Assembly (NCBI GenBank): GCA_034658935.1
Contig: JAYEGE010000008.1
Coordinates: forward strand, 68,678 to 132,677
Length of the DNA: 64,000 nucleotides
Reading direction: 5' to 3'
From: Patescibacteria group bacterium
GTDB lineage: Bacteria > Patescibacteriota > Minisyncoccia > Phycocordibacterales > JACOZG01
Shown: in pieces, positions 3,013-63,965 of the stretch
Layout of the letters: each line of letters starts with the position of its first letter
Numbering within the stretch: position 1 is the stretch's first letter
Program-made: the position numbers and the translations under genes
The notes under the pieces: generated by a model
What the model was told of the DNA's origin: nothing
The model's input: only the letters and a program-made list of their open reading frames with translations
The model's database searches: none

Positions 3013-4251
3013 ATGCCTAAAACACGTCGAATTAATTTTGATACCGCCGCCGCTACACCACTGGACCCGGCAATCAAGCGAGAGATGAATGCTTATCTAC
3101 GCAGCAATTTCGCTAACCCGTCTGGCTTGCACCAAGAGGGGGTGGCGGCGGCGCGTGAGCTTGCCAATGCCCGTGCGCGAGTGGCTGCCATCCTTGGTGC
3201 TCACTCTGACGAGATTGTTTTCACTAGTGGCGGGACTGAGGCGAATAACTTGGCGGTTTTTGGCGTAGTTGAGGCTCTTGAATCATTTGGACACGCCGTG
3301 TCCAAATCAAGGAAGCCCATTTGGACATGGCGTGTCCAAATGCAGGTGGTTACTTCGGCCATTGAGCACGCCTCGGTATTGGGGGCGGTGCGGGTGCTCG
3401 AGGGGCGGGGAGTGAAGGTGAGTTATCTGTCAGTAAATCGTGAAGGCTTAGTTAATCAAAAAAAATTGAAGACCGCCTTAAATAAAAAAACCAAACTCGT
3501 TTCTATTATTTATGCCCATAATGAAATTGGGGTGGTCCAACCGATCAGGGAGATTGCTAAAATTATCCGTCACCATTGTAAGCGGCATGGGACGGTTTAT
3601 CCTTATTTACATATTGATGCCTGCCAGGCGCCGCGTTTTCTTGACATCAACGTGGCTCGCTTGGGCGTAGACTTGATGACAATCAATGCTGGTAAGATTT
3701 ATGGCCCGCGTGGTATTGGTGCGCTCTACGTTAGGCGAGGTGTCGAGCTTGGGGCGCAATCAGTCGGTGGTAGCCAGGAGGGTGGACGGCGAGCAGGGAC
3801 TGAGAACGTGGCCGGTGCCATCGGCCTAGCCGGGGCCCTAGAAATTTGTGCTAAGGAGCGCGAAAAAGAAGCCAAGAGATTAAGCAAATTGCGCGATCAA
3901 TTAATTGCTGGCTTATTAAAGATTGATGGTGTTGAGTTGAATGGGCCACTGACAGAAAGATTGCCCAATAACGTTAATATTGGTGTTGGTGTCCCTAATC
4001 TAGAAAGTGAACAGGTGGTCATCGAGCTTGATGCCCAGGGCATTGCTTGTTCTACTGGCGCGGCTTGTAGCATTCCTAAACGTGACGGTTCCTATGTTAT
4101 AATGGCTCTAGGCAGAGACGAAGTGGCGGCGCGGAATGCAATTAGATTTACCCTTGGGCGGGAGGCGACGTCGGCTGACGTTAGGCATGTATTAAAAAGT
4201 CTAATAGCAATTTTCAAAAAATATGTACCAAGTCCCATCACTAAAATTTAG
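3013..4251 (+). CDS. cysteine desulfurase (class V aminotransferase, IscS/NifS group I)
   Basis: Has the TSGGTEANNLA motif, a PLP-lysine region and the C-terminal active-site Cys loop (ACSTGAACS). It carries an unusual in-frame palindromic insert at 3285-3343. Confidence 0.9.
   Translation: MPKTRRINFDTAAATPLDPAIKREMNAYLRSNFANPSGLHQEGVAAARELANARARVAAILGAHSDEIVFTSGGTEANNLAVFGVVEALESFGHAVSKSRKPIWTWRVQMQVVTSAIEHASVLGAVRVLEGRGVKVSYLSVNREGLVNQKKLKTALNKKTKLVSIIYAHNEIGVVQPIREIAKIIRHHCKRHGTVYPYLHIDACQAPRFLDINVARLGVDLMTINAGKIYGPRGIGALYVRRGVELGAQSVGGSQEGGRRAGTENVAGAIGLAGALEICAKEREKEAKRLSKLRDQLIAGLLKIDGVELNGPLTERLPNNVNIGVGVPNLESEQVVIELDAQGIACSTGAACSIPKRDGSYVIMALGRDEVAARNAIRFTLGREATSADVRHVLKSLIAIFKKYVPSPITKI
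3285..3343. repeat. tandem pair of about 23-nt palindromes (ATTTGGACACGCCGTGTCCAAAT) embedded in-frame in the desulfurase CDS
   Basis: Copy 1 (3286-3308) is a perfect palindrome. Copy 2 (3320-3342) has one mismatch. The two are separated by 11 nt. Confidence 0.8.
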
Positions 4252-8003: not shown

Positions 8004-8063
8004 GATTAATCGACCCCGAGGGTCGATTAAGGGGGACGCTCTTTCCTGGCGCTGAGGGTCCCC

Positions 8064-9477: not shown

Positions 9478-9633
9478 CGGCAGTGGGAAGGCTAGATATC
9501 CTATGAGGCCGTGCTAGACTATCAGAAGATAAGATGTCGTCGACTTTGTGTGACCCTGCGCCCCGCCGTAGCAAAGATCCAAATAAATTCTACAAACTAT
9601 CTCACCCCGACCCAATTATGGGTCAGTCGCCGC

Positions 9634-9677
9634 TGCAGATACCTCAGAGTTCTGCAGCGGCTTTTTCATTTTCTTAG
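9634..9677 (+). terminator. rho-independent terminator
   Basis: GCCGCTGCAGA..TCTGCAGCGGC stem followed by TTTTTCATTTTCTT. Confidence 0.7.
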
Positions 9678-10149: not shown

Positions 10150-11031
10150 GTGGGCGGGCTTGTCCTCATTATCTGTATGCCTAATAACAACTCAAATAAC
10201 GATAGCCAACAAAACGCGGCAGTTGGTTCTGACGGTGTGCCTTTAACCAAGAAGGAGCGTCGCCGCTTGAAGCGCGAGAAGAAACGCCATGAGAAGGTGG
10301 TGGAGGTACGTCGAGTCAAGCGAGGTCGTTGGGGTTGGTGGTTGCTCATCATCATCATTATCGCCGCCGCTGTTTTTGGTATTTACAAACTCACCGCCAA
10401 CAGCGGTCCGAGTGGGAACGGCGGGGGGCTAGTGGGCCCTGTTACTGGTGCCGATTGGCGACGTGGGCCGGAAGATGCCTCGGTGGTCTTGGTTGAGTTC
10501 AGTGATTTCCAATGTCCAGCTTGTGCCTTCTATGCCCCCTGGACTAAACAATTAACCGAAGACTTTCCCGAAGATTTGGCCGTTGTTTATCGGCATTTTC
10601 CTTTAAGTAGTATCTATATAAATGCTGAGTGGGCCGCTCGTGCCACTGAGGCCGCTGGCCTCCAGGATAGTTTTTGGGAGATGCATGACCTCCTATTTGA
10701 TCGTCAGGGAGACTGGGCGGAACGCTTAGATGCTAAAAATCTCTTTATTGAATATGCCGCCAGTCTTCTTGGCTTAAATGCTACCAAGTTTAAGCAGGAT
10801 ATGAATAATAATGAGGCGAAGCGCTTAGTTCTGGCGGACCGCCAGAGTGGCGTACAGTCTGGTGTCCGGGGCACCCCCACTTTCTTCCTTAATGGGGTTC
10901 TTCTCGATACTCCTCCAAGCTATGACGACTTTGCTGACTTGATCAGAGCTGAATTCGGAGTAGTGCTCCCGACGCAAACAGAAGATTCGAGCGGCGGCGA
11001 TGAGTCTAGTGACAATGCTGGCGATCAATAA
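10150..11031 (+). CDS. membrane-anchored DsbA-family thiol:disulfide oxidoreductase
   Basis: N-terminal TM segment and a thioredoxin fold with a CPAC active site (FSDFQCPACAFYAPW). Confidence 0.8.
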   Translation: MGGLVLIICMPNNNSNNDSQQNAAVGSDGVPLTKKERRRLKREKKRHEKVVEVRRVKRGRWGWWLLIIIIIAAAVFGIYKLTANSGPSGNGGGLVGPVTGADWRRGPEDASVVLVEFSDFQCPACAFYAPWTKQLTEDFPEDLAVVYRHFPLSSIYINAEWAARATEAAGLQDSFWEMHDLLFDRQGDWAERLDAKNLFIEYAASLLGLNATKFKQDMNNNEAKRLVLADRQSGVQSGVRGTPTFFLNGVLLDTPPSYDDFADLIRAEFGVVLPTQTEDSSGGDESSDNAGDQ

Positions 11032-11482
11032 AAAATTAATCTGGTTTTTCATCATCGTTAGTTTTATTGGCTTCGCCGATGCTACTTATCTGACGATTGG
11101 CTATTACCAGGGTGTTGTCCCGCCTTGCTTGGCTGAAGGTTGCGATACCGTGACCACTAGCGAATATGCCACTCTCGGTGGTATTTCAGTGGCATTAATG
11201 GGCGCAGTCTATTACCTGCTGGTTTGCTTGGCCGCCCTTCTTTACTTGATTGAAGATTGGCAGCCGGGGCGGTCTATTTTGCGCGTTCTCCCGGTTCTCG
11301 GCTTTGTTGGCTCGCTCTATTTTCTCTATCTCCAGGGTTTTGTAATTGGCGCTTGGTGTCAGTATTGTATTGTTTCCGCCGTGATCTCCACGTTTTTATT
11401 TGTGGCATCATTTTGGCTACTTGCCCCGAGGAACTCGAGGGGTGCTCGTCTCTCATCCACTGGATCTGAGAGTCCCTCTTAA
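11000..11482 (+). CDS. vitamin K epoxide reductase (VKOR)-family / DsbB-like membrane protein
   Basis: Multi-TM protein with a loop Cys pair (PPCLAEGC) and a CQYC active-site motif. It is adjacent to DsbA. Confidence 0.7.
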   Translation: MSLVTMLAINKKLIWFFIIVSFIGFADATYLTIGYYQGVVPPCLAEGCDTVTTSEYATLGGISVALMGAVYYLLVCLAALLYLIEDWQPGRSILRVLPVLGFVGSLYFLYLQGFVIGAWCQYCIVSAVISTFLFVASFWLLAPRNSRGARLSSTGSESPS

Positions 11483-12338
11483 ACCAAGTCATTTGGCGTT
11501 TGGCATATTGCCAATTAGTGATTTCTAGCTTTCGCAACAAGCTAATTTTCTCGCGTTGGGAATTATTTTGTTGCTTCCGCAAGAAGTCTGCAACGTAACG
11601 ATATTCTAAACCGAAATCATCTAATCTCTGCCAGGAGATTTTTTGTTTAGCGTGCAAGTTTTTCACCTCAGTGGTCAGGCCCCGCCTTAGTCTCTGTTGC
11701 AGTCGTTTGTTTATTTTCTCTTGCAAAATTTGCTTGCCTGGATTGAGGCCAATCCAGAAGGTGTCAAAGATTTGCCCCCCCAAGGACTCTCCTTCTGCAG
11801 AAGGAGAGTCCTTGGGGGGATTGGACGTTCTTGTCGCACTGGCAATCTCAATAGCCCTAATAAGACGACGAGGGTTATGTTTGTCGATATTCTTCACCCG
11901 AGCAGGATCAAGGACCTGGAGTTTTTTAAACAATTTAGTCGCTCGCCATCTCTCTAGTTCTTTTCTCAGTTCCAAATTAGGTGGTATTGCCGGCAAAGAT
12001 AGCTCGTTTAGTGCTGCCTGGATATATAACCCAGTGCCGCCGCAGATAATGGGCAGGTGGCCGCGCTCGGTAATTTCTCGGATTTTTTTCTGTGCCAGCT
12101 TTTTATATTTAGCCACGGTGAATTGCCCTCGCGGACTGGCGATATCAAGTAGGTGATGGGGGACGCCTTTCATTTCCTGTTTAGTGATCTTGCCACTGCC
12201 TATATCTAGGCCACGATAAACCTGGCGAGAATCAGCTGAGATCACCTCGCCATCAAGTTCCTTTGCCAACTCTACTGCCAGACCACTCTTGCCTGAGGAA
12301 GTTGGGCCAACTATTACTAAGACTTTTTGTCTGTCCAT
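11274..12338 (-). CDS. miaA: tRNA dimethylallyltransferase (MiaA)
   Basis: P-loop GPTSSGKS and the conserved DSRQVYRGLDIGSGK motif. It contains a 44-nt perfect palindrome in-frame. Its C-terminal about 70 aa overlap the convergent VKOR gene. Confidence 0.85.
   Translation of the reverse strand: MDRQKVLVIVGPTSSGKSGLAVELAKELDGEVISADSRQVYRGLDIGSGKITKQEMKGVPHHLLDIASPRGQFTVAKYKKLAQKKIREITERGHLPIICGGTGLYIQAALNELSLPAIPPNLELRKELERWRATKLFKKLQVLDPARVKNIDKHNPRRLIRAIEIASATRTSNPPKDSPSAEGESLGGQIFDTFWIGLNPGKQILQEKINKRLQQRLRRGLTTEVKNLHAKQKISWQRLDDFGLEYRYVADFLRKQQNNSQREKISLLRKLEITNWQYAKRQMTWFKRDSQIQWMRDEHPSSSSGQVAKMMPQIKTWRSRRKQYNTDTKRQLQNPGDRENRASQQSREPGERAK
11776..11819. repeat. 44-nt perfect palindrome inside miaA coding sequence
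   Basis: CCCCCCAAGGACTCTCCTTCTG|CAGAAGGAGAGTCCTTGGGGGG, with 22-bp arms and no mismatches. It encodes the same peptide PPKDSPSAEGESLGG on both strands. Confidence 0.9.
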
Positions 12339-16876: not shown

Positions 16877-19105
16877 CTACTTTGTTAATTTATGCGGATT
16901 ATGGTTTGGACAAGATTTGCTGCTACATCTCTCGGGGATCGTTTTTGTGCCTTGCATCATTAGGGAGCCGCACATGGTGCAGAGGGCGCCGGTTGGCTTG
17001 GCCTTGATGGCGTTCTTACAGGTGGGGTAATTGGAACAAGAATAGAAGATACCGAAACGTCCACGTTTCTCGGTCATCTCGCCCGTCTGACTTATCCCCG
17101 ACAAGCCTTTTTTGCAGACTGGACATTTGACACCAGTCCTTTTGGCCTCTTCAGCAGCTTCATCTTTCTTTATGTATTTACATTTTGGATAATTCGCACA
17201 AGAGACAAAGGTGCCGAAACGTCCTTCGCGCTCAACGAGTTTTCCATTTTTGCACTCAGGGCAAGCCTCACCAGTTTCTTTGGGGGCCATTTCCTTACCT
17301 TCAAGTGTCTTGGCACCAGTACACTCTGGGAATTTAGCGCAGGAATAGAATTTGCCTGAGCGGCTCAATTTGATAATCATCGGGCCATCGCAGGTTGGAC
17401 ATTTCATATCATCAGGCGCTTCACCAAGATTGGTGATCTTTGGCATCTTCTTCTTGGAGGCGATCTCGAGAGTGAAGGGGCCGTAGAAATCTTTCAGAGT
17501 TTTTACATAGTCGCGTTTGCCGTCGGCGATCTCGTCGAGCTCGTTTTCCATCTCGCTAGTGAAGGAGTCGCTGATATAAGAGGCGAAATTATTTTCCAAG
17601 AACTCGCTTACAACATCACCGGTCTCAGTCGGCTTCAGGCTCCGGCTCTCTTTATCAACATAGCCACGGTCGATGATGGTCTTAATAGTTGGTGCGTAGG
17701 TAGAAGGTCGGCCAATGCCGCGCTTCTCCAGCTCTTTTACCAATCCCGCTTCAGTGTAGCGATTGGGCGGCAGGGTTTCCTTGCCCTCGCTATTTATTTC
17801 CTTTAGATCGAGTGTCTCACCTTCTTCAACCACAGGTAATTCTGTTTCTTCGCCTTTGGCCGCCGGATCAGCTTTGAGCCAACCATCGAAGGTGGTTATG
17901 GAGCCGTTGGTTTCGAAGTTCGGCAGGGCCGCGGTTTTAACATCTGATGTTTTGACCGCGGCAGCAATTATCAATTTTGTTCGCTTAATTTTGGCGTCAC
18001 TCATCTGGCTAGCCACGACACGCGACCAGATCAATTTATAGAGTTTTTGTTCCTGCGGTGTTTTGCCGGCGCTACTTACGTTGGCATGAGATGGTCGTAC
18101 TGCCTCATGGGCTTCTTGGGCACTCTTAGATTTTGCGGCGTAACGACGTGTTTGTAGGTGGTCGGTACCAAATTTGTCTTTGACTACTCTAGCAATTTCA
18201 CCCAAGGCCTGTTGGCTTAGGTTAGTGCTGTCGGTACGCATATAGGTGATATGCCCGGCCTCGTAGAGTTTTTGAGCTAAGCGCATAGTAATAGAGGGGG
18301 AGTAACCTAAGCGTGACGAGGCCGCTTGTTGGAGGGTGGAGGTAGTGAAAGGTGGGCGCGGTGAGCGTTTGGCCTCGGTTTGCTTCACTTCCTTAATTTG
18401 CCATTTAGCTTTTTTGGCTTCAGTAACGATTTGCTCAGCTTCTTCACCCGCTTTCGGTTCTTCTGTGCAATGGGCCGGAAGCTCCTCCTTCTTGCTTGTC
18501 GCAAATAGTCCGTCGATTACCCAGAACTTCTCTGGGATGAAGGCGCGGATTTCTCGCTCGCGCTCAACCAAGATGCGGAGGGCGGGGGACTGAACGCGGC
18601 CGGCCGAGAGGCCATAGCGGAGCTTCTGCCATATTAGCCCAGACAGGTCGTAGCCGAAGAGTCGGTCAAGGACTCTCCTTGCTTCTTGGGCCTTCAATAG
18701 ATCCTCATCGATATCGCGTGGGTGCTTCATTGCTTCTTGCACTGCCCCCTCGGTGATTTCGTTGAAGGTGATCCGCTTGGTCTTAGATTTAGGTAATTTT
18801 AAGACTTCAGCGACGTGCCAGGCGATGGCTTCTCCTTCGCGGTCAGGGTCTGTGGCCAGGACTATTTCCTCCGCCTTTTTTGCCTTTTCTTTAAGTTCAG
18901 AAACGATCTTCTCTTTACCTTTGCTGATTTCGTAATGAGGAATAAAGCCGCCCTCGATATCGATGGCGTTCTTGTTTGATTTTGGTAAGTCGCGGACGTG
19001 CCCAACTGAGGCACGGACTGTGTATTCGTTATTTAAATATTTCTCAATTGTCTTCGCTTTGGCGGGCGACTCAACAATTAATAATTTGTTTGTTTTGTTT
19101 GGCAT
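16877..19105 (-). CDS. topA: DNA topoisomerase I
   Basis: TOPRIM start MPNKTNKLLIVESPAKAKTI, the catalytic core and multiple C-terminal Cys4 zinc ribbons. The start is taken at the internal ATG (19105) of the longer ORF. Confidence 0.9.
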   Translation of the reverse strand: MPNKTNKLLIVESPAKAKTIEKYLNNEYTVRASVGHVRDLPKSNKNAIDIEGGFIPHYEISKGKEKIVSELKEKAKKAEEIVLATDPDREGEAIAWHVAEVLKLPKSKTKRITFNEITEGAVQEAMKHPRDIDEDLLKAQEARRVLDRLFGYDLSGLIWQKLRYGLSAGRVQSPALRILVEREREIRAFIPEKFWVIDGLFATSKKEELPAHCTEEPKAGEEAEQIVTEAKKAKWQIKEVKQTEAKRSPRPPFTTSTLQQAASSRLGYSPSITMRLAQKLYEAGHITYMRTDSTNLSQQALGEIARVVKDKFGTDHLQTRRYAAKSKSAQEAHEAVRPSHANVSSAGKTPQEQKLYKLIWSRVVASQMSDAKIKRTKLIIAAAVKTSDVKTAALPNFETNGSITTFDGWLKADPAAKGEETELPVVEEGETLDLKEINSEGKETLPPNRYTEAGLVKELEKRGIGRPSTYAPTIKTIIDRGYVDKESRSLKPTETGDVVSEFLENNFASYISDSFTSEMENELDEIADGKRDYVKTLKDFYGPFTLEIASKKKMPKITNLGEAPDDMKCPTCDGPMIIKLSRSGKFYSCAKFPECTGAKTLEGKEMAPKETGEACPECKNGKLVEREGRFGTFVSCANYPKCKYIKKDEAAEEAKRTGVKCPVCKKGLSGISQTGEMTEKRGRFGIFYSCSNYPTCKNAIKAKPTGALCTMCGSLMMQGTKTIPERCSSKSCPNHNPHKLTK

Positions 19106-20064: not shown

Positions 20065-20144
20065 AATTATCCCTCCGCATATATTTTGAATTAACTGTAA
20101 TGAACAACGCTGTGCTGAGTTTAACTATCTGGATGTTTTTTGCA

Positions 20145-20172
20145 AATGTTAAACACCGGGTGTTTAACATTT
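20145..20172. repeat. REP-like 28-nt perfect palindrome (AAATGTTAAACACC|GGTGTTTAACATTT)
   Basis: It overlaps the dprA stop codon. The arms closely resemble the palindromes flanking the RAYT gene at 63272-63965 (AATGTTAGACATT..AATGTCTAACATT). Confidence 0.7.
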
Positions 20173-23043: not shown

Positions 23044-25014
23044 TTATACAAACTCGAAATCGATTACCTTATCTTTGAGGTCGGCCTTAACTACTTTTAT
23101 TTTAACTTGGTCGCCGAGGCGGTAGCGTCGGCCGCTATCTTTACCAACCATGGCGTAATTTTTTTCATCGAAGATATAGAAGTCGTCACTTAAGTCAGCT
23201 AGTCGTACCATTCCTTCAGATAAAGTTTCTTGCTCTTGAACATAGATACCCCACTTACTTAATCCGGAGATTATGCCATCGTAAGATTGGCCAATGCGCT
23301 CACTCATGTATTCGATCTGCTTATAGCGAATAGATTCTCGTTCGGCCTCTTGGGCGGCGACTTCTCGTTCAGTAGCATGTTCGGCCAGTCGATGATATTC
23401 CTCTAGGAGTTTGCTGGACGGCGCTTTGCCGCGGATATAATGATCAAGGAGGCGATGAACCATAATGTCTGGGTAGCGACGGATGGGGGAAGTAAAGTGG
23501 GCGTAATGTTTGAAGGCCAGCCCGTAATGCCCAATATTCTTCATCGAGTAGGTGGCCTTAGACATTGTCCGTAGGGCAGCGGTGTGGATCATCGCTTCTT
23601 CTGGGGTGCCCTCCACCGCCCTCAATAATTTATTCATGTTCTCTTGAGTGACGCCGTCCTCGTCGATCTTTAAGCGGTAACCTAGGGGCTCAATAAAATC
23701 GGCCAATTGTTTGAGTCTGTCGGTATCGGGGATGTCGTGGACGCGATAGACGAAGTGCTTGTCTTTATTCTCCACGATCTTAGAGACGAACTCAGCCACC
23801 TTACGATTAGCCAGGAGCATTAGGTCTTCTATTAAGAGATGCGTATCGGTGCGCTCCTTACGGATAACCTTAAGTGGCTTGCCGTTTTTGTCGAGAACGA
23901 ATTTAACCTCGTCAGATTCAAAGGCGATGGAGCCAGCATCCTCGCGTCCACGGCGCAGGTGCTTGGCTAGTTTGTTGAGGGCGGTAATTTCCCCGTGGTG
24001 CTTGCTCTGCTTGTCGTCTAGGGTCTCCTGGGCATCTTCGTAAGAGTAACGTTGGTCAGAATGGATTATGGTTCGGCCATACCACTCGTCGATTAGTTCG
24101 AACTTTGTTGCCTGTGCCGAGCCTGTCGAGGTAAAGGTGAAGACAGCCGAGAAGGTGAGCTTGTCTTCATTGGGGTTAAGGCTACATAAATCGTTTGAGA
24201 GCACCTCCGGCAACATAGGGATGGTGCGGTCAACTAGGTAGATAGAGGTAGCCCGTTTGATGGCCTCCCTGTCTAATTTGGTGCCTGGGCGGACATAATG
24301 GGCTGGGTCGGCAATATGGACTCCGACTTCTATTTGCCCGCTTTCCAATTCTTGGTAGGAGATGGCGTCATCAAAATCCTTAGCGTCAGCCGGGTCGATA
24401 GTGAAGGTGAGGACGGGGCGGAAATCGCGGCGCCCTTCTTTGTCCTCTGACTCGATCAGTTTAATTTCCTCGGCGAAGTCTGCCGCCGCGCCGGCCTTAA
24501 TTTCTTTAGCTTCTTTCTCAACCTCTGCTGGGAAACCAGAATCAAAGCCGCGCTCATAAACAATGGCTTGCATCTCAGTTTCGTGGCGACCAGCTACGCC
24601 GATATCCTTCATAACTTCGCCAACAGGATCTTTTTTGGAGTCTTTCCAATCAGTGATTTTAGCTAATACCTTGTCGCCGGGTTTAACCCCCTTTGTTTTT
24701 TTGTCAGCAACTAAGATGTCCTTATAGACCCGCTTATCGTCGGGAACCACAAAGAAAGAGTTGCCGTCTTTCTCAAGTAGCCCCACAAACTCTAGTCGTT
24801 TGCGCTCAACGATTTTAATAACTTGGCCGGAGCGTCTGTCGCTCCTGGAACTAGGGTCTATTTCTATTTCTACCAGGTCGCCCGGTAGGGCAGTGTTTAG
24901 TGAATTAGGCTCTATCTCTACTGCCTCGCTATCGCGCCCAAGTTCAGGGTCTAGCCTAACGTAGCCAAAACCCTTGGTTGAGATTCGGATTTCTCCGGTA
25001 AGTGTTTTTTTCAT
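23044..25014 (-). CDS. rnr: ribonuclease R (RNase II family, RNB domain + C-terminal S1)
   Basis: N-terminal cold-shock/OB region, RNB catalytic domain and C-terminal S1 domain. Confidence 0.9.
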   Translation of the reverse strand: MKKTLTGEIRISTKGFGYVRLDPELGRDSEAVEIEPNSLNTALPGDLVEIEIDPSSRSDRRSGQVIKIVERKRLEFVGLLEKDGNSFFVVPDDKRVYKDILVADKKTKGVKPGDKVLAKITDWKDSKKDPVGEVMKDIGVAGRHETEMQAIVYERGFDSGFPAEVEKEAKEIKAGAAADFAEEIKLIESEDKEGRRDFRPVLTFTIDPADAKDFDDAISYQELESGQIEVGVHIADPAHYVRPGTKLDREAIKRATSIYLVDRTIPMLPEVLSNDLCSLNPNEDKLTFSAVFTFTSTGSAQATKFELIDEWYGRTIIHSDQRYSYEDAQETLDDKQSKHHGEITALNKLAKHLRRGREDAGSIAFESDEVKFVLDKNGKPLKVIRKERTDTHLLIEDLMLLANRKVAEFVSKIVENKDKHFVYRVHDIPDTDRLKQLADFIEPLGYRLKIDEDGVTQENMNKLLRAVEGTPEEAMIHTAALRTMSKATYSMKNIGHYGLAFKHYAHFTSPIRRYPDIMVHRLLDHYIRGKAPSSKLLEEYHRLAEHATEREVAAQEAERESIRYKQIEYMSERIGQSYDGIISGLSKWGIYVQEQETLSEGMVRLADLSDDFYIFDEKNYAMVGKDSGRRYRLGDQVKIKVVKADLKDKVIDFEFV

Positions 25015-25058
25015 TATTTACGTATATTAGCTGATTTAGACGAAAAACAAAATGGCCT

Positions 25059-25080
25059 CGTGATTCACCGGTGAATCACG
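25059..25080. terminator. 22-nt perfect palindrome CGTGATTCACC|GGTGAATCACG with T-run on minus strand
   Basis: It overlaps the stop of the small acidic ORF. On the minus strand ATTTTGTTTTT follows. It lies 45 nt upstream of the rnr start, so it could act as terminator, attenuator or operator. Confidence 0.5.
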
Positions 25081-25306
25081 AGACCTCCTGGCTGGGAGAA
25101 TCCTCATCGCTGCTCTCTGACTCGGAGCCGCTTTGGGGACGAAGGAGCTTGGGGTCTACCGGAGGCAGGCTATCGAAATGTCGGTCGCAATCTGACAAGG
25201 CCGCCGCCGCCGCTTCTTCCTCCGTAGTCTCAGCTAGGCTGTGGGGTACTGCTATCCTTTTGACGCGTGCCCGCAGGCTCTCTGCCCATAGTCGTAACCA
25301 GTGCAT
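25076..25306 (-). CDS. possible small acidic Ser/Glu-rich protein (76 aa)
   Basis: Strong SD GAAGGAGGTG 6 nt upstream of the ATG on the minus strand. Low-complexity C-terminus, GC-rich. Confidence 0.35.
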   Translation of the reverse strand: MHWLRLWAESLRARVKRIAVPHSLAETTEEEAAAAALSDCDRHFDSLPPVDPKLLRPQSGSESESSDEDSPSQEVS

Positions 25307-60880: not shown

Positions 60881-61612
60881 ATGACCGACACCCTGCTCCA
60901 ACTTAAAGATGTCCACGTTCAATACGGCGGCGTTAAGGCCCTCGATGATGTGTCAGTGGAGATTGATGAGGGAGAGGTGGTGGCCTTGATGGGGCCCAAT
61001 GGGGCAGGGAAGTCGACGGTGCTTAAGGCGATCTTTGGCCTGGCGCCAATTGCCAAGGGTAAAGTGCTCTGGCATGAGCATCCGGTGGCTCCGCGACCAG
61101 ACGAGATGGTGGCTCGAGGACTCTCCTTCGTTCCTCAAGGTCGGCGGGTGTTCCGCCGCCTAACGGTGCAGGAGAACTTGGAGATTGGTGGTTATGTTAT
61201 TAAAGATAAGAAATTGGTCCAGGAGAGGATAAAGGAAGTCTCAGAAATCTTCCCTGACCTCAAAACTAAACTTAAGGCCAAATCGGGGACCCTCTCTGGC
61301 GGCCAACAACAAATGCTCGCCATCGCCCGCGGCCTCATTACTGAGCCTAAGGTACTCTTACTCGACGAACCTTCGCTCGGCCTCTCGCCTAAATTAGTTA
61401 AGGAAGTCTTTGCTAAAATTAAAGAAATAAACGAGCGCCATAAGACGGCGATTATGGTAGTAGAACATAATTTGAAGTCCCTTCTCCAAATTGTCCACCG
61501 AGCCTATGTTCTCGACAAGGGGCGCCTGGTCGGCGATGGTCCCGCCGCCCAATTTGCTGAAAAAGATTTCCTCAAGAAAGTCTTTCTCGGCCAAGTTGAA
61601 GCAGCAGCCTAG
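60881..61612 (+). CDS. livF: ABC transporter ATP-binding protein (LivF type)
   Basis: Walker A GPNGAGKST, signature LSGGQQQ, Walker B LLLDEP. Confidence 0.85.
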   Translation: MTDTLLQLKDVHVQYGGVKALDDVSVEIDEGEVVALMGPNGAGKSTVLKAIFGLAPIAKGKVLWHEHPVAPRPDEMVARGLSFVPQGRRVFRRLTVQENLEIGGYVIKDKKLVQERIKEVSEIFPDLKTKLKAKSGTLSGGQQQMLAIARGLITEPKVLLLDEPSLGLSPKLVKEVFAKIKEINERHKTAIMVVEHNLKSLLQIVHRAYVLDKGRLVGDGPAAQFAEKDFLKKVFLGQVEAAA

Positions 61613-63271: not shown

Positions 63272-63300
63272 AGATGTTAGACATTCAATGTCTAACATCT
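63272..63300. repeat. 29-nt perfect palindrome (AGATGTTAGACATT-C-AATGTCTAACATCT), REP-like element flanking RAYT
   Basis: It overlaps the RAYT stop codon. It is the exact reverse complement of the core of the palindrome at 63937-63965. Confidence 0.85.
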
Positions 63301-63936: not shown

Positions 63937-63965
63937 TAATGTTAGACATTGAATGTCTAACATTA
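63937..63965. repeat. 29-nt perfect palindrome (TAATGTTAGACATT-G-AATGTCTAACATTA), REP-like element
   Basis: It sits 12 nt upstream of the RAYT ATG. It is inverted relative to the downstream copy. Confidence 0.85.

Follow-up and report, generated by a model that had tools for sequence, protein, structure and literature searches.

A perfect 44-nucleotide palindrome in the miaA gene of a Patescibacteria group bacterium, a probable inverted duplication in a permissive protein loop

The stretch of DNA analysed here (the window, 64,000 nucleotides (nt), to which all coordinates refer unless another locus is named) belongs to contig JAYEGE010000008.1 of a Patescibacteria group bacterium, and carries within miaA, the gene for tRNA dimethylallyltransferase, a perfect 44-nt palindrome that probably arose as an inverted duplication of the adjoining coding sequence. 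The MiaA protein of the window is 100% identical to NCBI MEA1929710.1, encoded on a 132,795-bp contig of a Patescibacteria metagenome-assembled genome (MAG), and its relatives in the PDB include 2qgn and 3d3q (about E=1e-55). The features of the locus are as follows:

11274-12338, minus strand: miaA, an open reading frame (ORF) of 354 amino acids (aa), Pfam IPPT, E=2.8e-63
11754-11840, minus strand: hypervariable loop of MiaA, residues 167-195, SATRTSNPPKDSPSAEGESLGGQIFDTFW, placed by the homologue alignment between the RAIEIA helix and the IGL strand
11776-11819, no strand assigned: the palindrome, which with base 11775 codes for MiaA residues 174-188, PPKDSPSAEGESLGG
11798-11819, minus strand: gene-5' arm, CCC CCC AAG GAC TCT CCT TCT G, coding for PPKDSPS; putative native source arm
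11776-11797, minus strand: gene-3' arm, CA GAA GGA GAG TCC TTG GGG GG, coding for (A)EGESLGG; putative derived copy
11795-11800, no strand assigned: symmetry centre, the 6-bp palindrome CTGCAG, as seen in the sequence itself
11782-11794, no strand assigned: nested hairpin AAGGA-CTC-TCCTT
11801-11813, no strand assigned: nested hairpin AAGGA-GAG-TCCTT, with a loop complementary to that of the first
11671-12156, plus strand: antisense ORF of 161 aa (486 nt), reading the same peptide PPKDSPSAEGESLGG

The palindrome consists of CCCCCCAAGGACTCTCCTTCTG followed, with a 0-nt spacer, by CAGAAGGAGAGTCCTTGGGGGG. All 22 pairs between its 22-nt arms are Watson-Crick pairs and none is G-U, so that the zero mismatches reported by the sequence-only reading (an earlier note on this DNA made without database searches) were confirmed, as was its placement of the palindrome in frame inside miaA. 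Neither arm contains a stop codon, and the ORF is intact and conserved on either side. Each arm is the exact reverse complement of the sequence immediately adjoining it, the arrangement by which template-switch products are recognised. The chance expectation for such a palindrome in the window is about 64000 x 4^-22 (about 4e-9), and in shuffled sequence no arm match was seen, even allowing 3 mismatches. Perfect stems of at least 10 bp with a loop of at most 12 nt were found at 13 sites of the window, compared with 0-2 in 10 shuffles, and the miaA palindrome was the longest of them.

The layout of the palindrome, CCCCCC[AAGGA-CTC-TCCTT]CTGCAG[AAGGA-GAG-TCCTT]GGGGGG, shows a small 5-bp hairpin nested in either arm, and the chance of an inner hairpin within a 22-nt arm is about 0.1-0.9%. 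As the loops of the two small hairpins are complementary, one hairpin is an inverted, and not a tandem, copy of the other. The full length of 44 nt is not divisible by 3. RNA folding of the 104-nt palindrome context gave -54.3 kcal/mol, with a z-score of -5.9. The palindrome is also bordered on the plus strand by a C7 run (11775-11781) and a G6 run (11814-11819), read as G7 and C6 on the coding minus strand, and homopolymer runs that long within an essential gene are liable to slippage and frameshift.

We aligned 120 MiaA homologues, the protein of the window among them, of which the nearest is 59% identical and all the closest ones are of the Patescibacteria type. In an AlphaFold2 model of the window MiaA (mean predicted local distance difference test score (pLDDT) of 80), residues 174-187 scored below 50 and lay between a helix (156-171) and a strand (191-200), which places the palindrome peptide in a predicted disordered loop. 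The sequence-only reading had staked its account on the protein sequence not being conserved across orthologues at this site, and the alignment agreed, showing a hypervariable loop. However, its description of the palindrome as an insert, in a loop shorter in other MiaA proteins, was overstated or not supported. The loop spans 19-38 aa in the 120 homologues, with a mode of 20 (58/120) and a minimum of 19, and is 29 aa long in the window. At least 29 aa are present in 16 of the homologues, the window's own counted, and B. halodurans MiaA (2qgn) falls just 4 aa short of the window at this loop. Removal of the 15 palindrome residues would leave 14 aa, fewer than in every homologue; a clean insertion of 44-45 nt therefore does not fit, and a local inverted duplication is favoured instead. 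The excess over the modal loop is 9 aa, or about one arm (7.3 codons) plus two residues (QI), and the gene-3' arm covers most of it.

Comparison of the loops also indicated which arm may be the older. An xP pair is present early in the loop in 104/120 homologues and PP in 23/120, mostly as the common VPP (for example VPPK in protein P0006; P numbers denote MiaA homologues and L numbers the loci of relatives). The start of the gene-5' arm coincides with the PP[K/R] position of hairpin-free homologues (VPPK, VPPL, VPPA and others). PP followed downstream by GG was seen in only four of the 120 loops, those of the window, L026, L024 and L028. In codon alignments of the window, L026 and L024, the codons for PP and those for GG form pairs with each other, and in our reading of these alignments third codon positions pair together; in L028, a 7-bp stem instead pairs the neighbouring ACC CCT TTT codons with AAG GGG. 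The coding sequence for LGG is the reverse complement of that for PPK or PPR. This pairing of PP with GG codons is the best argument for taking the gene-5' arm (11798-11819) as native to the loop and the gene-3' arm (11776-11797) as its inverted copy, an assignment that stays inferential, as the similarity is weak in a loop this variable.

We then examined miaA DNA from relatives, amounting to ten further distinct genes and, with the window, 11 distinct loci (L023 duplicates L022). The first eight lines below refer to the loop that holds the palindrome in the window, and the last two to other variable sites of the gene:

L026 (P0095): TTCCTCCAAGGG.CCA.CCCTTGGAGGAA, a 12-bp stem coding for VPPRATLGG
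L024 (P0066): ACCCCCCGATGTT-11 nt-AACATCGGGGGGT, a 13-bp stem coding for PPD…SGG
L022 and its duplicate L023 (P0069): near-perfect stem of about 22 bp, -52.4 kcal/mol, z = -5.4
L025 (P0093): the L022 hairpin in decayed form, its changes uncompensated, -38.3 kcal/mol
L020 and L021: imperfect hairpin, z about -2.2 to -2.4
L028 (P0061): 7-bp stem
L018 and L019: no significant fold
L027: weak fold, z = -2.5, no perfect stem of at least 8 bp
L018, second variable site (1454-1476): TAATCGACCCT.C.AGGGTCGATTA, coding for SNRPSGSI
L020, third variable site (2714-2736): CCCCCTCCCC.TTC.GGGGAGGGGG, within a 10-codon insertion, PSPSGRGVGG

A hairpin was present in this one loop in at least 7 of the 11 distinct loci. 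In an identity matrix calculated without the loop, the window grouped with P0002-5 (63-66%), P0066 with P0069 and P0093 (71-73%), and P0095 with MiaA proteins that have loops of 19-20 aa. Carriers of hairpins therefore fall in at least three separate MiaA groups, suggesting at least three or four origins, probably independent, for the hairpins of this loop, and the L026 hairpin looks like an independent event built in the manner of that in the window. We considered an ancestral hairpin common to the window, L026 and L024, whose PP..GG clamps look homologous. However, these three belong to different MiaA groups in which the other members are hairpin-free, and independent origin is therefore more likely.

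In several hairpins of the relatives, one arm is clearly native coding sequence. The arm coding for AKRSEN in the L022 miaA hairpin resembles ATRTSN and AKRTEN in sequences elsewhere that have no hairpin. The SNRPSGSI hairpin of L018 is decayed in L021, and L019 and L020 keep the native S-N codons without the other arm. The third such case is the alanine racemase gene (alr) described below. Perfect and decayed forms of one hairpin coexist in two pairs of relatives, L022 with L025 and L018 with L021.

The sequence-only reading had pointed to a second gene in the window with a palindromic sequence, and this was verified in the cysteine desulfurase gene (3013-4251, plus strand; Pfam Aminotran_5, E=1.7e-62). 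A long palindrome lies in the desulfurase loop that follows GGTEANNLA in all four orthologues that were read, with four different sequences:

Window, 3284-3342, plus strand: [ATTTGGACACG.C.CGTGTCCAAAT]-11 nt-[ATTTGGACATG.G.CGTGTCCAAAT], nested design
L019, 14979-15019: [TTGGACAC.TTC.GTGTCCAA]AGT[TTGGACAC.GAA.GTGTCCAA], 41 nt, perfect
L022, 17765-17811: [TGTAGGAGT.TTG.ACTCCTACA]AGACC[TGTAGGAGT.CAA.ACTCCTACA]
L025, 16505-16544: GCGAGGCTCAACCTC-10 nt-GAGGTTGAGCCTCGC

Three of these four palindromes, like that of miaA, are inverted duplications of a smaller hairpin, and an inner stem of 8-9 bp has a chance probability of at most 2e-4. The earlier view of the miaA and desulfurase palindromes as unrelated thus holds for their sequences, but not for their design, since the nested double hairpin is common to both. 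The desulfurases of the window and L019 share TTTGGACAC/GTGTCCAAA stems written with the same codons, whereas flanking synonymous sites differ; the codons of the TTTGGACAC stem are identical at 5 of 6 positions, against a background of 38% (P = 0.03).

L022 and L025 also bear perfect hairpins in topoisomerase I (topA) and in alr, and a further hairpin lies in a desulfurase helix:

Alanine racemase, L022 11887-11921 and L025 11533-11567: GCAGGGTTTTTTGTT…AACAAAAAACCCTGC, with one arm coding for RQGFL
Topoisomerase I, L022 4982-5006 and L025 3870-3894: GCGCCGCGCC…GGCGCGGCGC
Desulfurase helix, L022 17899-17923 and L025 16632-16660: GGCGCGCGCGAC.N.GTCGCGCGCGCC

The RQGFL of the 5' racemase arm directly follows VDTGMH, and this arm therefore looks native. 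These three hairpins show that coding palindromes in this clade are not confined to variable loops. Across these loci, perfect stems of at least 10 bp were found at 31 sites in 134 kb, compared with 3 sites in 71 kb of unrelated loci, a small control. Between the independent JGI assemblies L022 and L023, 1 base in 20,454 differs, and all of these hairpins are present in both, which indicates that such hairpins are reproducible and not assembler noise.

Taken together, these results suggest that the miaA palindrome is an inverted duplication in a permissive, disordered loop, the product of short-range template switching as the DNA was replicated, a reading to which we give a probability of roughly 0.6. 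During synthesis across the loop-coding region, the polymerase would have jumped off its template close to CTGCAG, where a strand switch is plausible, copied in reverse about 22 nt from the opposite or nascent strand, and then returned. The native PPKDSPS stretch would thereby have gained an adjoining reverse-complement copy, now coding for (A)EGESLGG, and the loop would have lengthened from about 21-22 to 29 aa, with a small accompanying loss preserving the frame. A pre-existing hairpin in the source arm, AAGGA-CTC-TCCTT, would have been copied along with it, which would explain the nested design, and this hairpin may have contributed to polymerase stalling. The same process may keep such hairpins perfect in this lineage, and the added loop residues are probably neutral or nearly so. 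We infer the direction of copying (that is, the source arm) and the switch points from the comparisons above.

Complete complementarity without a spacer and without G-U pairs is expected from templated copying of DNA, and the coexistence of perfect and decayed hairpins fits a process of mutational birth and decay. All the coding hairpins are in frame and without stop codons, which suggests that they are translated and not bypassed. Template switching can make a perfect stem in one event and can repair existing stems (PMC8794818), has been offered as the reason why perfect inverted repeats are over-represented and conserved in Proteobacteria (PMC5941160), and alters coding sequence in yeast (PMC8604942).

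Several points weigh against this interpretation. The nearest MiaA, at 59% identity, is too distant an outgroup for reconstructing the pre-event allele or the points at which strands were switched. A 22-nt copy is not divisible by 3, so that other nt (1, 4 or a similar number) must have been lost or exchanged in the same event. The native status assigned to the 5' arm draws on weak similarity within a hypervariable loop. Recurrence in the same loop, in at least 7 of 11 miaA genes and in all four desulfurases, together with the nested design, amounts to more order than random switching predicts, and could reflect selection or active maintenance. Further copies may lie beyond the 64 kb, the copy search having covered the window and the collections described below. 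A two-step alternative, in which an older 20-nt palindrome coding for PPKALGG acquired a 24-nt apical palindrome, is not distinguishable from the model of one copied arm.

A different explanation for this order is that the hairpin is selected as RNA or DNA, as a translational pause, a control of mRNA stability or a recognition site, and is kept despite drift in sequence; we regard this as unlikely. It would account for the occupation of the same miaA loop by different sequences in several lineages (the window, L024, L026, L022/L023, L025 and L020/L021), for the differing palindromes at one loop of every desulfurase, and for the recurrence of nested double hairpins, and it draws modest support from the codon identity in the TTTGGACAC stem. 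Selected RNA helices, however, usually contain G-U pairs, whereas these stems are purely Watson-Crick, an argument that is only partly independent because the hairpin finder demanded perfect stems. The L022 hairpin has decayed in L025, and the L018 hairpin in L021, by changes that were not compensated, and in L018, L019 and most homologues (including the 58/120 whose loop is 20 aa long) there is no space for a hairpin or no sign of one. No Rfam family matched above its gathering score (only hairpin models of miRNA precursors appeared, at 20-35 bits where 63-107 are needed), and the absence of a T-rich tail on either strand means that the palindrome is not an intrinsic terminator by a simple scan. 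The presence of hairpins in the unrelated genes topA and alr also argues against a common function. Spacer-free perfect palindromes are, on the other hand, a known signature of fold-back chimeras, and the organism is represented by a single assembly (a one-member cluster), so that an artefact of assembly or amplification, absent from the DNA of the organism, has to be weighed as well. We consider this very unlikely, since the inverted copy is just 22 nt long and the gene resumes in the right orientation and in frame into the conserved FDTFWIGLNP, in the middle of a 132.8-kb contig, whereas a fold-back chimera would continue in the inverted direction. Analogous coding hairpins are moreover present in JGI, ENA, NCBI and Logan assemblies, and the agreement between L022 and L023 extends to their hairpins.

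In-frame insertion of a mobile palindromic element, such as a Rickettsia palindromic element (RPE), a repetitive extragenic palindromic (REP) sequence, a REP doublet (REPIN) or a miniature transposon, was judged a highly improbable origin for the palindrome. The resemblance is real in that an in-frame palindrome in a loop of an essential gene recalls the RPEs, and a nested palindrome of palindromes the REP doublet. However, no second copy of the 22-nt arm was found within the 64-kb window at up to 3 mismatches. An exact 18-mer of the arm, CCAAGGACTCTCCTTCTG, had 4 single matches in genome_contigs, 13 in metagenome_contigs and 0 in viral_contigs, collections that do not contain the source MAG, while the remaining 69 kb or so of the contig and the rest of the MAG lay outside the copy search. 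None of these matches was palindromic, and all were in unrelated organisms and were taken as chance. The 14-mer core of the arm, AAGGACTCTCCTTC, has one-mismatch copies at 18668-18681 and 61116-61129, where about 0.02 are expected at up to 1 mismatch. Neither copy has a palindromic context, and that at 61116 reads RGLSFVPQGR in another frame, within an ORF that looks like an ABC-type ATPase; although two such copies exceed expectation, they are probably a coincidence. Each coding hairpin found has a sequence of its own, one arm of the miaA palindrome appears to overlap native residues, its 44 nt are not divisible by 3, and the addition of 44-45 nt to any observed loop conflicts with the loop length of the window. 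One hairpin with 10-nt arms, TAATCGACCC-N3-GGGTCGATTA, does recur at unrelated places, in the intergenic sequence at 8006-8030 and within the L018 miaA. The intergenic hairpin lies just past the clpB stop codon, reads TTAATCGACCC-CGA-GGGTCGATTAA, and had zero matches in the viral contigs. Since the L018 arms overlap the native S-N codons, a common mobile origin of the two is doubtful.

More specific candidates were also tried and rejected. A scan for an intrinsic terminator serving the convergent VKOR operon or miaA showed no terminator-like site at 11776-11819 on either strand. Programmed frameshifting would call for a slippery site at the right distance, which was not found, and the element is in frame without a stop codon. 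Translational bypass was set aside, as the frame is kept and stop codons are absent in the coding hairpins of the window and of its relatives, and the flanking codons (AAT and CAA) do not match. Membership in a dispersed palindromic family (RPE, REP, REPIN or miniature inverted-repeat transposable element) was rejected because no second copy appeared in the sequence searched and the loop is not longer by the full length of an element.

The antisense ORF at 11671-12156 reads the same peptide as miaA across the palindrome, as the sequence-only reading had noted. The palindrome accounts for the openness of this ORF over 44 nt, but not over its whole 486 nt, and the ORF is most likely spurious and not a gene. 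The miaA ORF also overlaps a convergent VKOR-family gene (11000-11482, plus strand) by 209 nt (11274-11482). This overlap and a tail motif of MiaA (…P.IK.W[RK]S…) recur in L018-L021, with overlaps of 119-161 nt, and represent either a real conserved feature or an over-extension of miaA by gene callers through sequence that VKOR keeps open on the opposite strand.

Further palindromes were noted elsewhere in the window. Three related perfect palindromes of 14 bp (20144-20172, 63272-63300 and 63937-63965) are located between genes or at their edges, with the consensus (A/T)(A/G)ATGTTA(A/G)ACA(C/T)(C/T)-N-complement. They look like a shared operator or terminator motif, and a similar sequence, GTTAAACATC…GATGTTTAAC, occurs in L019 at 570-594. 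A near-perfect, spacer-free palindrome of 32 nt, GGCCTCGTGATTCACC followed by GGTGAATCACGAGACC, is found at 25054-25085, about 40 nt upstream of the gene for RNase R (23044-25014, minus strand). The perfect 11-bp stem at 9629-9661, GCCGCTGCAGA-11 nt-TCTGCAGCGGC, resembles an ordinary terminator, being followed by TTTTTC; CTGCAG is found in its arms too.

Bypass elements are skipped by the ribosome, so that their frame need not be kept; stop codons are frequent in them, and their take-off and landing codons match. RPEs occur as families of many copies, each roughly 100-150 bp long and conforming to a consensus, and the identity of their arms is lost over time. REPINs and REP doublets are extragenic, number tens to hundreds of nearly identical copies, and have a linked gene for the REP-associated tyrosine transposase (RAYT) that moves them. 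The miaA palindrome resembles REPINs in that two inverted small hairpins form one long hairpin, but none of their extragenic location, copy number or RAYT linkage was seen. It shares with RPEs the apparent in-frame translation within loops of essential proteins, whose function is not destroyed, and differs from them in being single-copy in the sequence searched, 44 nt long, perfect and, probably, partly made of native sequence. RPEs have been described as selfish DNA in protein-coding genes (cited in PMC6649704), and the same paper mentions the bypass elements of T4 gene 60 and the yeast mitochondrial 'byps' (PMC6649704).

The closest analogue in form is the set of coding palindromes in Nematomorpha mitochondria, which are perfect, in frame, and gained or lost between species, the long ones being nearly always perfect (PMC6649704). 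The authors of that study propose conversion of arms by template switching and a function-free, 'parasitic' persistence (PMC6649704). The Nematomorpha palindromes reach 284 bp, lie in mitochondrial DNA, and have both arms in conserved protein regions (PMC6649704), whereas the present palindromes are 27-59 nt long, lie in bacterial chromosomes, and are mostly in hypervariable loops; both arms of the miaA palindrome fall in a hypervariable loop of low pLDDT, and do not encode conserved protein parts. In bacterial quasi-palindrome mutations and perfect inverted repeats (PMC5941160, PMC7202029, PMC8794818), as proposed for the window, a single event creates a perfect stem by placing a reverse-complement copy next to its source. 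Those systems correct imperfect stems to perfect ones, and in the present clade perfect and decayed forms are found among relatives. A survey of E. coli K-12 reported that all short inverted repeats had arms below 20 bp, and focused on non-coding DNA (PMC5941160). The miaA palindrome, unlike these, has spacer-free arms of 22 bp, lies in an essential gene and is nested, and such hairpins recur in the same protein loops across a Patescibacteria clade. In yeast, homogenisation of inverted-repeat arms by template switching changes several codons at once, as here, but the case is eukaryotic, with mostly short arms and no report of recurrent growth of hairpins in one loop across lineages (PMC8604942). 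Literature searches for coding-sequence palindromes in Patescibacteria or the candidate phyla radiation returned nothing relevant. The single miaA palindrome most likely belongs to a known kind, that of template-switch products, and the clade-wide, site-recurrent and nested pattern may be the potentially new part.

It is possible, though we hold this tentatively, that coding palindromes are a lineage-wide trait that reflects a peculiarity of DNA maintenance or a function, with perfect, often nested hairpins repeatedly made and kept perfect at the same permissive loops of essential genes (miaA, desulfurase, alanine racemase and topoisomerase I). The cause could be a peculiarity of replication or repair in reduced genomes, for example the loss of exonucleases or hairpin nucleases that suppress template switching. 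If so, the Patescibacteria trait would be a bacterial counterpart of the Nematomorpha mitochondrial palindromes, and template switching would supply much of the new loop sequence that these proteins acquire.

For annotation, the palindrome should be treated neither as a mobile element nor as a dismissible assembly error, its 15 residues as an extra loop, and the antisense ORF as spurious. For protein evolution, it would be a clean and unusually long case in which one slip during replication added new amino acids to an essential protein. The recurrence in the same loop and the nested designs suggest a high rate of template switching or an active maintenance of hairpins in an uncultivated group with reduced genomes, and the lineage merits a systematic survey of hairpins.

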